From positions 45,483 through 109,482 of the forward strand of contig CALRAM010000001.1 of NCBI GenBank assembly GCA_943353165.1: a stretch of 64,000 nt of DNA. The letters run 5' to 3'. Every line of letters starts with the position of its first letter. The stretch's first letter is position 1. This document shows, piece after piece, positions 1,168 through 29,602 of this stretch. The position numbers were made by a program, and so were the translations under genes. This DNA comes from an uncultured Candidatus Saccharimonas sp. (GTDB lineage Bacteria > Patescibacteriota > Saccharimonadia > Saccharimonadales > OMJO01). The notes below the pieces were generated by a model. That model did no database searches. It had not been told where the DNA came from and saw only the letters and a program-made list of their open reading frames with translations.

Positions 1168-4100
1168 TTGAAAACAAATAGTTTAAACCCAAGTGACTAT
1201 GTGCATTTGCATAATCATACCCAGTACAGTTTGTTAGATGGCCTAACAAAAGTTCCTGCCTTAATGGATTTTATAAAAGAAAAAGGCATGAAAGCTGTCG
1301 CAATAACTGATCATGGGACTTTATCAGGTCTTATTGAATTTTATAAAGAAGCAAAATCTTCAAGACTAAAGCCTATTTTAGGAATAGAGACATACGTCGC
1401 ACCAAGATTACATACAGATAAAGACCCAGCAAAGGATAAATTAAATAATCACTTGATTATTTTAGCCATGAACCAGCAGGGTTACCGTAATCTCATGAGG
1501 CTAAGCACCATAGCTAACCTAGATGGGTTTTATTACAAACCCAGAATAGACCATAATTTATTAGAAAAATATAATGAGGGTTTAATAGTCCTTAGTGGTT
1601 GTATTGGTGGTGAAGTAGGAGACGCGCTTCGACAAGATCAATATGATGCAGCAAAAAAAACTGCCCAATGGTACAAAAAAGTTTTTGGCGACAGATATTA
1701 TCTAGAGATTCAAGACCATGGGCATAAGCTTCACCCAAAGAGCTGGAAAGAACAAGTTAAAGTTACAGAAAGTACCTTCAGGCTTGCCAAAGAACTTGAA
1801 ATACAAGCAGTTTTAACATGTGACGCTCATTATTTGAAACATGAAGACCAGCAAGCTCATGAGATATTATTGTGTGTTCAGACTGGTTCTTTTTTAACTG
1901 ACGAGAAAAGAATGTCTTTGAAAGATTTTGATTTAAATGTAGTAGATCCAGTCGATCTAATTAAACGATGGGGTAGTTCCAATCCAGAAATAATTACTAA
2001 TTCTTTAGTAATAGCAGAAAGATGTAACGTAAGTTTAGACTTTGGAAAGATATTAATCCCAAAATTTGACTTGCCTAAAAATGAAACAGAAAAAACGTTT
2101 ATGGACAGATTGGTGTATCAAGGATTAACTAACAGATATGCAAATATATCCGAAAAAAAATCTGAAAAGATGTCAATAGAAGAAGCAAAAAAATTATTGC
2201 CAAAAAAAGTTTTGTCTAGAGCATCGTACGAAATGTCAGTTATAGATAAAATGGGATTTAACGGCTATTTTTTGATTATTGCTGACTTTATAAAATGGGG
2301 AAAATCGCAACGCATAGTATTTGGACCTGGACGGGGCTCGGCCGCTGGATCAATAATCGCATATGCGCTAAAGATTACAGAGTTAGACCCTTTAGAATAC
2401 GATTTATTGTTCGAGCGTTTCCTAAATCCTGACCGTATATCTATGCCAGATATTGATATTGATATCCAAGACAACAGAAGAGATGAAGTTATAAAGTATT
2501 GTATACAAAAGTATGGAGAAAATAGGGTCGCCAATATAGTCACATTCGGTCGTATGGCAGCTAGAAATGCCGTCAGAGACGTCGCTAGAGTCTTGCAAGT
2601 ACCTTATGCAGATGCTGATAGGTGGTCAAAAATGATTCCCGCACCAATCCAAGGCAGGCATATACCTTTGAGCAAATCTTTAACTGCCGACAAAGACCTA
2701 AAACAAGTATACGAAAATGACGATCAAGCTAAAATTGTTTTTGATTTGGCAATTCAGATGGAGGGGACTATCAGAAGTCATGGTGTTCACGCAGCTGGAG
2801 TGGTGATTGCGCCAGACGATATAGTTTTGTTCGTACCACTAGAAAAAGCTCAAAAAGGCGTTGTTGCCACTCAGTACCCGATGGGTCCAATAGAGGATTT
2901 AGGTTTGCTAAAGATGGATTTTTTGGGATTATCAAACTTGACTACTATAAACAACGCGCTAAGAATTATCAAAAAAGTCTACAATAAGAGCATAGACATA
3001 AATACAATACCTCTTGACGATTTGAAAACTTACCAATTATTGCAGAGGGGCGACACTACAGGTATATTCCAATTTGAATCTCAAGGTATGAAAAGGTACC
3101 TAAAGGACCTAAAGCCAACTGTTTTTGATGACATTATAGCCATGGGCGCCCTATACAGGCCTGGTCCACTAGGCGCAGGCCTAACGCAGCGTTTTATAGA
3201 CAGAAAAAACGGAAAAGAAAAAATAGAATATGCCCACAAAAGCATGCGTTCGGCTCTCGGTTCTACCTACGGAGTTTTGGTATATCAAGAACAAGTTATG
3301 CGTATAGCCAAAGATATGTGTGGTTTTAGCGGAGGTGATGCTGATACCCTGAGAAAAGCCATAGGAAAGAAAAAAAGAGATGTTATGGCTAAAATGAAAG
3401 AGCAATTCATAACCGGTGCAATAGAAAAATCAAATGTTGATCGTGATTTTGTGGAAAAATTCTGGAAGGACCTTGAGGGGTTCGCCGATTATGCTTTCAA
3501 TAAATCTCACTCTGCTTGCTACGGACTTATTTCTTACCAGACAGCTTATTTAAAAGCGCATTACCCAGCTGCATATATGGCTTCTTTAATGACTAGCGAT
3601 TATGACGATACAGATAGGTTGGCTATAGAAATAACAGAATGCAAAAAAATTGGCATAGACGTTCTAGCGCCAGACATAAATGAGTCTTTTTTAGAATTTG
3701 CCGTTGTTCCAAAAGAAAAACAAATAAGGTTTGGCTTAGCCGCCATAAAAAATGTAGGTGCTGGCGCAGTTGATGAAATACTAAATGTCAGACCAACTGA
3801 AGGTTTCAAGAATTTACAAGACTTTTTTTCTAAAGTTAATAACAGGATTATTAATCGAAAAGTACTGGAGAGTTTAATTAAATCTGGTGCATTTGACAGA
3901 TTTGGCGAACGTAGCTTTCACCTAGCAAATTTAGATATATATATTTCGTATGCCTCTAGAAAACAAAAACAATTTTCTAGTGGTCAAACTGACTTATTTG
4001 GAAATTTGCTAGAGGAAACAACAGATTCATTACCTCAGCTAAAACTAGACTATACTGCGCAACCTATACCACTACGGGAACAATTAATGTGGGAACGTGA

Positions 4101-27709: not shown

Positions 27710-27790
27710 TCATATTTTACTAATTACGCAAAATTTAGTACAATAACAGAGTGGTATAAGGAAAAAACATATGGATCTGTCGTATGTTAT

Positions 27791-27818
27791 GCGGACGACC
27801 GTGGCTGAAGGTTCATCC
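27791..27818 (+). repeat. tRNA-Leu-derived mini-fragment (5' acceptor/D start fused to a T-arm-like segment)
   Basis: GCGGACGACCGTGG matches the 5' end of the interrupted tRNA at 27851. The following CTGAAGGTTCATCC resembles CGTGAAGGTTCAAGTCC of the intact tRNA. Confidence 0.4.
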
Positions 27819-27890
27819 TATACGCCAAGTACGATACAATTTATAATTACGCGGACGATCGTGGAATTGGTAGACACGCTAGCCTTAGGA

Positions 27891-27998
27891 GTGAAACCCG
27901 CCTGTGGCGGGTTGCAAGGTCGGAAGCCTGGATTGCGCAAGCAACCAAGCTGAGACGGGGTCGCAACCGATTGGACTATGTCCAATAGGATTGTGACA
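27891..27998 (+). repeat. structured element copy A (variant): HP1 CCCGCC-TGT-GGCGGG, HP2 capped by GCAA, HP3 with extra nested hairpin
   Basis: GTGAAA-CCCGCCTGTGGCGGGTTGCAAGG-[AGCCTGGATTGC-GCAA-GCAACCAAGCT]-CGGGGTCGCAA..TTGGACTATGTCCAA..ATTGTGAC. It replaces the 3' anticodon-stem strand of the tRNA-like gene. Confidence 0.6.
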
Positions 27999-28017
27999 GT
28001 GCCGCAAGGCGTGAAGG

Positions 28018-28104
28018 AGAGACCCGCCTGTGGCGGGTCGCAAGGTAGACAACTCTTGCGAACTGGTTTGCAAAGATGTTGCTACGGGGTCGCTGAAAGT
28101 GACC
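28018..28104 (+). repeat. structured element copy B, inserted in place of TTC of the T-loop
   Basis: AGAGA-CCCGCCTGTGGCGGG-TCGCAAGG-[TAGACAACTCTTGCGAACTGGTTTGCAAAGATGTTGCTA]-CGGGGTCGCTGAAAGTGACC, flanked by GAAGG on the 5' side and AAGTCCTTT on the 3' side. Confidence 0.65.
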
Positions 28105-28151
28105 AAGTCCTTTTCAAAAGCCTCTTGAACCTTCATAATATTATACAGTGC

Positions 28152-28236
28152 GCGGATGTGGTGGAATTGGTAGACACGCTAGCCTTAGGAGCTAGTGCCG
28201 CAAGGCGTGAAGGTTCAAGTCCTTTCATCCGCACCA
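28152..28236 (+). tRNA. tRNA-Leu, anticodon TAG (UAG), class II long variable arm, CCA encoded
   Basis: Manual fold. Acceptor GCGGATG/CATCCGC. D stem GTG/CAC with GAATTGGTAGA loop. Anticodon stem CTAGC/GCTAG with loop CTTAGGA. Variable arm TGCCGCAAGGCGT. T arm GAAGG-TTCAAGT-CCTTT. Discriminator A followed by CCA. Confidence 0.9.
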
Positions 28237-28239
28237 ATC

Positions 28240-28270
28240 AAAAAATGCTCTCTTTTGAGAGCTTTTTTTG
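28240..28270 (+). terminator. intrinsic terminator after tRNA-Leu
   Basis: GCTCTC-TTTT-GAGAGC followed by a T run and preceded by an A run. Confidence 0.7.
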
Positions 28271-28297
28271 ATTTGTTCTGGAAGGTCTTGAACCAAA

Positions 28298-28422
28298 CCC
28301 TAAGGCGTGAAGGCGAGAGCCGCCTGTGGCGGGTTGCAGGGAAACCTTTCAGATTATCTACTTGTTGATAGTATGAAAGTTTTGGGGTCGCGGAACGTGA
28401 CCAAGTCCTTTCATCCGCACCA
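28298..28422 (+). repeat. tRNA-Leu 3'-portion-like unit carrying structured element copy C; ends in an exact copy of the tRNA 3' end (AAGTCCTTTCATCCGCACCA)
   Basis: CCCTAAGGCGTGAAGG-CGAGA-GCCGCCTGTGGCGGG-TTGCAGGG-[~42-nt hairpin]-GGGGTCGCGGAACGTGACC-AAGTCCTTTCATCCGCACCA. The element core spans 28314-28402. Confidence 0.65.
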
Positions 28423-28455
28423 AAACAAGTGACCCCGAAAGGGGTCTTTTGTTTT
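28423..28455 (+). terminator. intrinsic terminator after unit C
   Basis: GACCCC-GAAA-GGGGTC followed by TTTTGTTTT. The sequence is unrelated to the terminator at 28240. Confidence 0.7.
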
Positions 28456-28490
28456 GGTGGTCGAAATGCCCAGAACCTTCACCCTAAAAA

Positions 28491-28648
28491 GGCGTGAAGG
28501 GGAGAGCCGCCTGTGGCGGGTTGCAAGGCAACTTTACAGATTTCAAACTTGTTTGAAGTATGTAAATTGAGGGGTCGTGGAACGTGACCGAGCCCCCTGT
28601 CTTTCTGACAAGAAGGCCAGGCAGGACGGACAGGTTTCATTCACACCA
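28491..28648 (+). repeat. tRNA-Leu 3'-portion-like unit carrying structured element copy D plus a further ~45-nt hairpin insertion; degenerate 3' end TTTCATTCACACCA
   Basis: GGCGTGAAGG-GGAGA-GCCGCCTGTGGCGGG-TTGCAAGG-[hairpin]-GGGGTCGTGGAACGTGACC (core 28501-28589), then GAG-CCCCCTGTC..GGACAGG-TTTCATTCACACCA. Confidence 0.6.
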
Positions 28649-28686
28649 ACCATATATTGTATGAACTGACACAAAATAACACCTAT

Positions 28687-28712
28687 AGAGGAACGTCCTC
28701 TTTCTCTTGTTT
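28687..28712 (+). terminator. weak intrinsic-terminator-like hairpin downstream of unit D
   Basis: AGAGGA-ACG-TCCTCT followed by the T-rich tract TTCTCTTGTTT. The T tract follows the stem only on the + strand, so it is not the terminator of the LOG gene on the - strand. Confidence 0.4.
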
Positions 28713-28750
28713 CTGTTCTACACCCAATAGACTTGTAATTGATTTTTTAC

Positions 28751-29329
28751 TCATACAAATTTGTCCGCTAGTTCTTTTGTCTGATAATTCTTAAAATAAT
28801 TTAAGATATCATTCAAATCACTGCCAATAAACACAAAATCACTAAAAGGCACTTTTGAGAAATCTTTCTGTTGCATTTCATCTAGGAATTTTATGAGCGT
28901 ATCGTAAAAACCATCATAGTTAAAAATAGCAATCGGTTTGTCGTATAGTTTATTTACTTTACCACCAACAATTTCTCCAATTTCTTCAAATGTTCCGTAG
29001 CCGCCGGGCAAAATAATAAATGCGTCTGATTCAAAAACTATACGATGTTTGCGGTCGTCCATAGTTTCTTCTAAGTATGTTTTATCAAGTCCATCAAATG
29101 CTACATAGCCTTTGGTAACTGCCATCAAATCTTTTGCCATCACGCCAGTCAAATCATTGCCGCCAGCGTCTTTATAGGCTTTAGCAAGTTCAGACATCAT
29201 CCCATAGTCTGTTCCACCATAAACAATACCCATTTTTTCATTAGCAAGTCGTTCGGCAACTTCTATAGTCAAATCAATATATTCCTGCCCAACTGACAAA
29301 GAAGATGTAAGAGTTATACCCACTTTCAT
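28751..29329 (-). CDS. LOG-family protein (TIGR00730-type Rossmann-fold nucleotide-binding / phosphoribohydrolase)
   Basis: GIVYGGTDYGMM and the PGGYGTFEE motif (LOG family PGGxGTxxE). I chose the ATG at 29329 (MKVGITL..) inside tracked ORF 28751-29356. Confidence 0.85.
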   Translation of the reverse strand: MKVGITLTSSLSVGQEYIDLTIEVAERLANEKMGIVYGGTDYGMMSELAKAYKDAGGNDLTGVMAKDLMAVTKGYVAFDGLDKTYLEETMDDRKHRIVFESDAFIILPGGYGTFEEIGEIVGGKVNKLYDKPIAIFNYDGFYDTLIKFLDEMQQKDFSKVPFSDFVFIGSDLNDILNYFKNYQTKELADKFV

Positions 29330-29421
29330 AAATCTAATTATACAACAATTACCCAAAAATCTTTTCAGCCAAAAACTAAAAACCCTACAGAGCAGTTCAG
29401 CGAGTCGCCCAGAACCCTAAG

Positions 29422-29520
29422 GCGTGAAGGGGGGACCCGCCTGTGGCGGGCCGGACGTAAACAAACTCTTGAAAACTGGTTTTCAAAGATGTTTTTCTGG
29501 GTGAGATGAGAAGGGGGCTC
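29422..29520 (+). repeat. structured element copy E (5' part and HP2 conserved, linker and HP3 degenerate)
   Basis: GGCGTGAAGG-GGGGA-CCCGCCTGTGGCGGG-CCGGACG-[AAACAAACTCTTGAAAACTGGTTTTCAAAGATGTTTTT]-CTGGGTGAG.. HP2 is homologous to that of copy B. The 3' end coordinate is approximate. Confidence 0.5.
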
Positions 29521-29602
29521 ATTGTATAGGGACACAGACAAGATTATTCTACATCATCGATTACTAAAACCTATTTATGATGTATTATAAATAGGAATAA
29601 CT

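Follow-up and report, generated by a model that had tools for sequence, protein, structure and literature searches.

The interval from 27851 to 28113 of the window (the whole 64-kb stretch of DNA analysed here) is the promoter-proximal 5' portion of a tRNA-Leu gene that carries two insertions, copies A and B of a folded repeat here called element E, and it cannot mature to a tRNA. On our best reading the functional gene is the intact tRNA-Leu(TAG) at 28152-28236 and the pseudo-tRNA is a non-functional remnant, which is probably still transcribed, as a leader. One of the descriptions offered in an earlier note on this DNA, a dead paralog colonised by the element, is supported by the loss of 2 nt at each insertion site, by the missing acceptor 3' strand and by the intact gene, with the same anticodon, 38 nt downstream; we accordingly describe 27851-28113 as a dead partial copy of its neighbour, twice invaded by E. 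The element itself is a family of folded repeats of about 86 bases that is apparently undescribed and apparently restricted to Saccharibacteria.

The interrupted tRNA-Leu copy seen in the earlier note is real: two blocks match the intact gene at 100% identity (27861-27891 to 28161-28191, 31 nt; 27998-28017, the variable arm and T-stem 5' strand, to 28194-28213, 20 nt), and two inserts break the copy. The 5' part (27851-27891) comprises the acceptor 5' strand, the D arm, the anticodon stem 5' strand, the loop CTTAGGA and G39; its first 10-14 nt are divergent, reading GCGGACGATCGTGG against GCGGATGTGGTGG in the intact gene, with the substitutions in the acceptor and at positions 8-9 that the note had listed and one additional base that it had overlooked. 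Copy A (27892-27997, 106 nt; covariance model R1, described below, 48.2 bits, E value 2.6e-10) is inserted after CTTAGGAG; it does lie in the 3' strand of the anticodon stem, as claimed, but replaces only CT in the middle of that strand and leaves AG. It has the H2 subtype CCGGAAGC...GCTGAG and, in the predicted fold, an additional hairpin in the loop of H3. Copy B (28018-28103, 86 nt; 99.3 bits, E value 8e-24) lies in the T-loop between GAAGG and CAAGTCCTTT, where it replaces T54-T55; the earlier claim that TTC is replaced holds if the base after GTGAC is assigned to the element, and otherwise the replacement is TT only. The pseudo-gene ends with CAAGTCCTTT, the 3' part of the T-loop and the T-stem 3' strand (28104-28113), after which the sequence is unrelated to tRNA-Leu: downstream of CCTTT it reads TCAAAAGCC, where the intact gene has CATCCGCACCA.

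CGTCCGC, the acceptor complement that the note could not find nearby, is absent from the + strand of the entire window. ARAGORN and the Rfam tRNA model (RF00005), a tRNA-finder check of the kind the note had proposed, call one tRNA in the 64 kb, the tRNA-Leu(TAG) at 28152-28236 (60.5 bits with the Rfam model), and do not call the pseudo-gene; 27851-28113 lacks both the paired 7-bp acceptor stem and the detectability of a canonical tRNA gene. The sequence from 27710 to 29602 is identical, with zero mismatches, across four independent metagenome assemblies, indicating that the locus is not an assembly artefact.

Removing both insertions rebuilds no cloverleaf, as the note had also concluded, and there is no acceptor 3' strand, so the interval is not a spliceable gene. 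It is very improbable that 27851-28113 is a true multi-intron tRNA gene whose inserts are removed and whose RNA is completed to a second functional tRNA-Leu. The sense orientation of the inserts and their positions in or beside loops would suit such a gene, and Patescibacteria are known to carry unusual tRNA introns (PMC13011429), but precise excision would leave a 5-nt T-loop and a broken anticodon stem, no acceptor 3' strand lies nearby, the acceptor and positions 8-9 are mutated, and Rfam gives no group I or group II signal even at E<=10. Nor do the other hosts of E favour it, since the element-bearing tRNA-like copies that were checked are all truncated or broken except for one recent insertion (locus L104); two host nucleotides are missing at every independent site examined, and excision therefore cannot restore a tRNA.

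Organization of the tRNA-Leu locus

The window belongs to a Saccharibacteria-type chromosome of about 40% GC, with rpoB/rpoC and a ribosomal protein operon downstream of the locus; its + strand, on which all features described here lie, has positive GC skew and carries the majority of the genes. Upstream of the pseudo-tRNA, 27791-27829 holds an older, internally deleted tRNA-Leu remnant in which GCGGACGACCGTGG is fused to CTGAAGGTTCATCC...ACGCCAAG; it is orthologous to an element-bearing pseudo-tRNA upstream of the tRNA-Leu of a sister strain (L127). The TATAAT box reported in the earlier note is present, but at 27842-27847, 3 nt before the 5' G of the pseudo-tRNA, rather than at 27843-27848, and the same TTTATAATTAC stands ahead of the intact L127 tRNA-Leu. 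The intact gene has a promoter-like site of its own (TTTTCA, 17 nt, CATAAT; 28111-28139), largely inside the spacer that separates it from the pseudo-gene, and its own intrinsic terminator (28233-28276, inverted repeat I1). The spacer (28114-28151) also contains 12 nt that are antisense to the T-arm (CTTGAACCTTCA, 28124-28135); in the predicted fold GUGAAGG pairs with CCUUCAU across copy B, so that this piece would play the role of a leader for copy B. Spacers of like design occur in L136 and L017.

Beyond what the earlier note recorded, the window holds three more copies of E (28314-28401, 28501-28588 and 29431-29512, here copies C, D and E), inside 3' tRNA-Leu fragments; each is preceded by the T-stem 5' strand (GGCGTGAAGG) and followed by variably decayed tRNA-Leu 3' sequence. 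Unit C opens with a leader (28280-28313) formed by an antisense T-arm (GGAAGGTCTTGAACC; 12 of 14 antisense matches, a value reached by 0 of 200 shuffles) and a sense copy of the variable arm and T-stem 5' strand (CTAAGGCGTGAAGG); copy C (86.6 bits with model R1) then occupies the T-loop of a 3' tRNA-Leu fragment, CAAGTCCTTTCATCCGCACCA, which has its own terminator (28402-28459), is identical over 22 nt to 28216-28237 and can be aligned to the intact L127 gene over its 3' end and terminator. Unit D (28463-28648, inverted repeat I3) consists of an antisense leader, the T-stem 5' strand, copy D (84.7 bits) and a decayed 3' fragment that contains an extra hairpin insert and terminates in TTTCATTCACACCA. 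Unit E (29410-29530) has the leader CAGAACCCTAAGGCGTGAAGG followed by copy E (42.3 bits), whose 3' part, by comparison with a nested copy in L121, is replaced from about 29499 by the degenerate start of another copy (GGG, then TGAGATGAG...CTCATTG).

A family of folded repeats

The 14-nt core CCGCCTGTGGCGGG occurs five times in the window, always on the + strand and between 27898 and 29450, against 0.08 occurrences expected, so its recurrence is not due to chance. The five copies of E that contain it (A to E) all lie on the + strand within 1.7 kb of the window's only tRNA gene. An alignment of 17 copies yielded three hairpins, H1, H2 and H3, with conserved purine linkers, and served to build covariance model R1, which at E<1e-4 detects 55 copies spread over 35 loci of Saccharibacteria/Patescibacteria and, in the window, just the five known copies. 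Among 33 aligned copies 97.5% of the cells form standard pairs and 22 of the 26 pairs have changed on both sides; none of 500 shuffles does as well, and shifted registers drop to 30-53% paired. A G·U pair in H3 is retained in 30 of 31 sequences; on the opposite strand it would be an A·C mismatch, indicating that the strand that folds is the tRNA-sense strand, as RNA or as single-stranded DNA.

Pattern scanning of 185,579 species genomes found true homologues only in metagenome-assembled genomes of Saccharibacteria/Patescibacteria (the first pattern was GC-rich, and some 90 of its 100 matches were chance occurrences in high-GC genomes, separated by GC content and sequence inspection), and a scan of metagenomes added 27 loci. 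Viral contigs, scanned twice, with an exact and with a degenerate H1 pattern, contained no E. No Rfam 15 family matches the element, whether 2.1 kb of the locus or copy B alone is searched at E<=10; the best Rfam score on E is 16.5 bits against a threshold of 35 bits, and at the gathering threshold the tRNA model alone matches the whole window. The literature searched holds no description of E, the nearest subjects being the group I introns of Patescibacteria and general work on tRNA fragments; with no match in Rfam 15 either, the family is apparently undescribed. E contains no ORF. All-against-all BLAST of 279 ORFs and Pfam searches of 22 ORFs from related loci revealed no recombinase, transposase, reverse transcriptase or integrase beside the arrays, and the recurring neighbours in the ORF comparison are syntenic housekeeping genes only, with no conserved neighbour gene of E.

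Association with tRNA genes and insertion signature

In Saccharibacteria, E was found only within or beside tRNA-like sequences. Where a locus includes a tRNA gene, all copies of E are close to one and share its strand. The tRNAs concerned are those for Leu, Lys, Arg, Pro, His, Val, Ser, Gln and Gly, and the sites occupied are the T-loop, the anticodon loop, the D/anticodon junction, the variable arm, the D arm and the H2/H3 junction of other E copies. Two layouts recur. In the upstream layout a 5' tRNA portion with one or two copies of E, in the T-loop, anticodon loop, D/anticodon junction or variable arm, ends before the acceptor 3' strand and is followed by a short spacer and the intact gene; examples besides the window are L074, L099 and L136 (Leu), L017, L106 and L115 (Pro), L020 and L084 (Ser) and L103 (Val). 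In the downstream layout the intact gene is followed by at least one unit composed, in order, of an antisense T-arm leader, a sense T-stem 5' strand, E, the remainder of the T-arm, an acceptor 3' strand plus CCA, and the unit's own terminator.

Comparison with intact neighbours at nine or more different host sites reveals a constant signature: a run of G precedes E and 2 host nt are missing. T-loops lose TT, anticodon loops AG, GT or GC, and one D arm AG; CG is gone from the D/anticodon junction and from the variable arm, CT from the site of copy A in the window, and GT from H3 of other copies. Among 45 non-redundant copies the 5' flank ends in GG in 39 and the element starts with T in 38; the first base downstream is C in 28 of 36. 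Nesting at the same CGGG/GT/CGC site is seen in L103, L106, L107 and L121, in at least four independent combinations. Insertion destroys a tRNA, and consistent with this the copies examined occupy partial, redundant tRNA copies next to an intact gene. The sole exception is the recent insertion in L104, where the host is a full-length tRNA-Ser(CGA).

Comparison of related strains

That E is mobile is indicated above all by loci L104 and L122, which are 98-99% identical and differ by one 88-nt copy of E, which in L104 replaces exactly TT54-55 of the tRNA-Ser(CGA) and changes nothing else; the gene is intact in L122. Only 4 of its 88 positions distinguish this copy from one nested in another E of L106. 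The uninterrupted orthologous loci that the earlier note had suggested looking for exist: the RsmD-tRNA-Leu loci L137 and L138 are free of E, and in L136, which resembles the window in its design and its spacer, there is one E, in a pseudo-copy of the same design as that of the window.

The sister strain represented by L127 and L130, whose flanking genes match those of the window at 98% identity, has a single tRNA-Leu in place of everything from the 5' pseudo-part through the 3' fragment after copy C. The 5' part of the L127 tRNA-Leu aligns with 27801-27891 and its 3' part and terminator with 28402-28521 (the fragment itself being 28402-28422), so that, taken together, the 5' part of the pseudo-tRNA and the fragment that follows copy C act like opposite ends of a single gene copy. 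Either the window allele arose by an insertion of about 510 bp into the L127 type, or the L127 allele arose from the window type by two deletions between tRNA-derived repeats.

L074 and L099 have E at the same position in diverged genomes, with the full structure kept through compensatory changes in H2. Window copy E and a variant in L114 are decayed.

Fragment units, antisense leaders and cargo

A significant antisense T-arm leader is present in 14 of 18 downstream units by a window test that tolerates mismatches, used in place of an exact-match test that proved insensitive (6.2 nt observed against 5.2 nt in shuffles). In predicted folds the leader base-pairs with the sequences on either side of E, and E comes to lie inside a multi-helix junction, which suggests selection on a larger folded unit. 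One reading of this architecture is that E is a structured RNA module useful to the host, held in tRNA-derived scaffolds and co-transcribed with tRNA genes, with the pseudo-tRNA as scaffold or leader; its possible roles would include a protein- or ligand-binding domain and a processing or regulatory element. We consider this unlikely. Strong purifying selection on structure and on the sequences of H1, H3 and the junctions, a fold kept at the same position in diverged genomes, and downstream units with their own terminators and with antisense leaders around E are all what it would predict, and very small genomes rarely retain junk; retention of structure, antisense leaders and the small size of the host genomes together keep a functional RNA under consideration. 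However, orthologous loci do without the element (L137, L138), its copy number and position vary between strains, nested copies disrupt H3 of the copies that host them, copies decay (window copy E and the L114 variant), and there is neither a conserved neighbour gene nor an Rfam family.

The units can also be taken as the products of recombination. L122 has a 101-nt unit, bordered by a 21-nt repeat, that L104 lacks; a unit of L122 lacks E, and in L115 and L118 other inserts occupy the same T-loop slot, so that the architecture of fragment units and E are separable. Some arrays carry genes between units: L031 has a CBASS-like islet, and a LOG/SLOG gene stands in the window where L127 and L130 have an ORF of the CBU_0592 family. 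Such cargo keeps alive the idea that E and the folded T-arm form a single-stranded recombination site, comparable to integron attC or the folded attP of the CTX phage, for cassettes or islets at tRNA T-loops; the arrays, and the pseudo-tRNA with them, would then be cassette junctions produced by a recombinase encoded elsewhere. We judge this unlikely. It would account for tandem units split by tRNA-derived direct repeats, each with a different terminator, for the 101-nt unit found in one strain and not in the other, for the cargo between units and for folding specific to the sense strand; tRNA fragments are, moreover, a known by-product of integrative elements (PMC9897764). No integrase adjoins any array, however; the element is not needed for the unit architecture, given units without E or with other inserts; E also stands alone in anticodon loops, D arms and other E copies, without a cassette boundary; and the viral contigs scanned lack it.

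The likeness to att-type tRNA fragments of integrative elements, at least as Williams 2002 is cited in PMC9897764, extends to partial copies beside an intact gene, to a directly repeated 3' tRNA segment (22 identical nt in the window), and to arrays of displaced 3' ends with their own terminators and variable cargo at a hotspot. The units described here differ in measuring 100-190 nt, in being mostly free of cargo, in including 5' fragments as well and in having no integrase that could be found, and the structured 86-nt loop insert and antisense T-arm leader are foreign to classical att sites. Judged as att islands, the arrays have repeats of tRNA segments and some cargo, no integrase was found in them, and most units are empty.

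Integron attC sites are single imperfect hairpins with R and L boxes and extrahelical bases, found beside the IntI integrase and attI. E shares with attC, and with the folded attP of the CTX phage, a structure more conserved than its sequence, folding of one strand, arrays in the same orientation and the possibility of a recombinase acting from elsewhere; it differs in having three hairpins and in occurring alone in cassette-free loops, and neither an integron integrase nor a Xer-type site was identified.

Relation to introns and transposable elements

The tRNA introns of Thermoproteales are short related inserts at many non-canonical positions, several per gene, that are removed at bulge-helix-bulge motifs to give functional tRNAs. 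Like these transposing archaeal introns, copies of E are related inserts in varied tRNAs and positions, in the sense orientation and sometimes several per gene; unlike them, they occur in a bacterial host and in truncated pseudo-genes, with 2 nt missing and with no bulge-helix-bulge seen at the junctions, where, on inspection, H1 begins a single nucleotide past the 5' junction and H3 extends right up to the 3' junction, leaving no room for the 3-4-3 motif. The self-splicing group I introns of Patescibacteria, which lie in the anticodon loop of functional tRNA genes and are missed by annotation tools (PMC13011429), have the phylum in common with E, and both are inserts in tRNA genes that annotation misses; E differs in its 86-nt length, its lack of a group I signal and its location in dead copies.

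Miniature elements derived from IS200/IS605 and REP repeats are short, ORF-less and strand-specific, have hairpins at both ends and make no target duplication. They resemble E in hairpins, strand bias and lack of duplication, in nested and clustered copies, and in the plausibility of a lagging-strand template. The hairpins of E, by contrast, abut its very ends, its target is only a run of G rather than a fixed sequence of 4-5 nt, it costs the host two nucleotides, and its internal H2 is also under structural selection; no Y1/HUH transposase was found near any copy among the ORFs searched beside the arrays.

Several further candidates were rejected. A tRNA containing a group I or II intron is at odds with the lack of any Rfam intron family at E<=10, and its joined exons would lack T54-T55 and C40-T41; a split tRNA that combined the 5' pseudo-gene with the 3' units would have a duplicated T-arm and would also be missing T54-T55. 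E is not a MITE: its ends (TGAGA...GTGAC) are not inverted repeats, and comparing the empty with the filled site reveals that TT is replaced and nothing is duplicated. A kink-turn at the junctions was dismissed, GUGACC being fully paired in H3, as were hammerhead, twister, hatchet and HDV-like ribozymes, which give no Rfam signal here and do not fit the architecture of E. A GG crossover of the IS607-type serine recombinases would need the GG that is lacking at the right junction, and the likeness of one H2 subtype to the hix site of Hin-type recombinases is off by 2 in spacing and concerns a hairpin that varies freely.

Proposed mode of spread

We think it probable that E, whose sense strand folds, is a non-autonomous insertion element that settles in redundant tRNA fragments, and that the pseudo-tRNA is a non-functional remnant. 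E would enter tRNA-like sequences at exposed junctions flanked by G, without exception in the sense orientation and with two host nucleotides replaced per insertion, and would survive only where the tRNA copy is dispensable. The family with its covarying structure, its tie to tRNA genes in one orientation, the 2-nt replacement, the nesting, the difference in occupancy between strains and the element-free orthologues are all observed; the route of movement is inferred. Movement may proceed through the single-stranded sense strand, either as lagging-strand template DNA at the replication fork or as a transcript, a form in which a tRNA-like cloverleaf would offer its loops; joining could be the work of an enzyme encoded elsewhere or of template switching, and later spread among T-arms and E copies might occur by recombination through the conserved flanks. 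Against this explanation stand the lack of an identified enzyme or autonomous partner and termini that are neither inverted repeats nor accompanied by a target duplication; to our knowledge, replacement of 2 nt matches no known transposition chemistry. The structure retained in L074 and L099 is unlike that of a decaying selfish copy, barring overwriting by gene conversion from active copies; the leaders of the 14 of 18 downstream units, pairing with both flanks of E, suggest selection on a larger folded unit; and many T-loop copies could stem from homologous recombination and not from transposition.

The combination of sense orientation, loop targeting, self-nesting, 2-nt replacement and covarying hairpins fits no standard class, whether MITEs, IS200/IS605 derivatives, introns or att sites, and may point to an unrecognised way in which DNA or RNA moves or is copied at tRNA genes. 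E can be filed among the small structured repeats and insertion elements, with a real chance that its mechanism is new. A stronger proposal, which we regard as unlikely, is that E is a new kind of mobile nucleic acid, whose folded sense strand, in RNA or single-stranded DNA form, recognises G-flanked loops of tRNA sequences folded as cloverleaves and becomes joined into them while a dinucleotide is displaced. If so, its chemistry would differ both from that of target-duplicating transposases and from group I and II reverse splicing, and the antisense leaders and replacement tRNA copies would let E disrupt a tRNA gene while a working one persists. Cultivable Saccharibacteria exist, which makes the idea of an unrecognised mechanism directly testable.

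For genome evolution, the family implies that the ultra-small genomes of these symbionts tolerate a proliferating, tRNA-directed repeat, and that the tRNA loci in these genomes form dynamic arrays in which fragments are combined with replacement copies and with small islets of cargo, among them the CBASS-like defence islet. For annotation, loci with E break assemblies, hide or mimic tRNA genes and draw spurious ORF calls.

Variable genes at tRNA loci

The tRNA-Leu locus is a hotspot for variable cargo, since the window and its sister strain carry different genes there. Between units D and E, two of the downstream units in which the folded element is combined with tRNA-Leu fragments, the window encodes on the minus strand (28751-29356) a LOG/SLOG-family protein (Pfam Lysine_decarbox, LDcluster4), whereas both loci of the sister strain (L127 and L130) possess a CBU_0592-family ORF in its place, as well as an additional DUF2268 gene that separates RsmD from the tRNA locus.

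Another comparison locus, from a Saccharibacteria MAG (L031:200-3640), contains a 3.4-kb islet that is flanked on both sides by element-bearing tRNA-fragment units (two in all) and is a CBASS-like defence set: it encodes a DUF3892 protein, a nucleotidyltransferase of the SMODS type that also carries an AGS_C sensor domain, and a SLATT_4 effector with two transmembrane segments.

Other inserts and element-free units

The T-loop slot that the element takes up elsewhere is occupied, in a downstream unit at two tRNA-Pro loci (L115:2100-2320 and L118:2095-2320), by a structured insert of approximately 190 nt, different from the element, in the order antisense leader, T-stem 5' strand, insert and TAGTCCTGTCACCCC..CCA. 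Immediately past CCA the two strains part into different cargo genes, encoding a HAD hydrolase in one and an unknown protein in the other. Of two near-identical strains, one (L122, about 1777-1880, reverse strand) possesses a 101-nt element-free unit that the other (L104) lacks. In this unit a tRNA-Arg 3' fragment, whose T-loop is intact, is combined with a terminator, a short antisense T-arm segment and a small hairpin; the 21-nt direct repeat CAAATCCTACCCTCGTACACC bounds the unit.

Additional hairpins are inserted within tRNA fragments. The 3' fragment of unit D (window 28597-28634) contains an inverted repeat, CCTGTC...GACAGG, between what is left of the T-stem and of the acceptor (TTTCATTCACACCA); the corresponding L127 unit is without it. 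A pseudo-tRNA-Val upstream of the intact tRNA-Val contains a GC-rich hairpin unrelated to the element, CCTGCC..GGGCAGG, in its D-loop region (L103:2040-2080, minus strand), and its T-loop also holds a nested pair of elements.

Within the element itself, one subtype of hairpin H2, CTCTTGAAAACTGGTTTTCAAAGATG, seen at window 28050-28076 and in many other copies, forms an almost perfect AT-rich palindrome. It resembles the half-sites that make up the crossover sites of Hin-type invertases. Its central spacing is 2 nt different from theirs, and copies of the element differ freely in H2; the likeness is probably coincidental.

Annotation and assembly

In L128 and L132, public gene callers predict ORFs of 60 and 97 amino acids on the plus strand (window 27771-27953 and 27978-28271, respectively) that span the dead tRNA-Leu copy and its element copies, and are very likely spurious. 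Short-read assemblies are fragmented at tRNA loci by copies of the element; the contig ends of two assemblies of the same strain (L133 and L134) fall exactly within the repeat cluster, at window positions 28238 and 27888.
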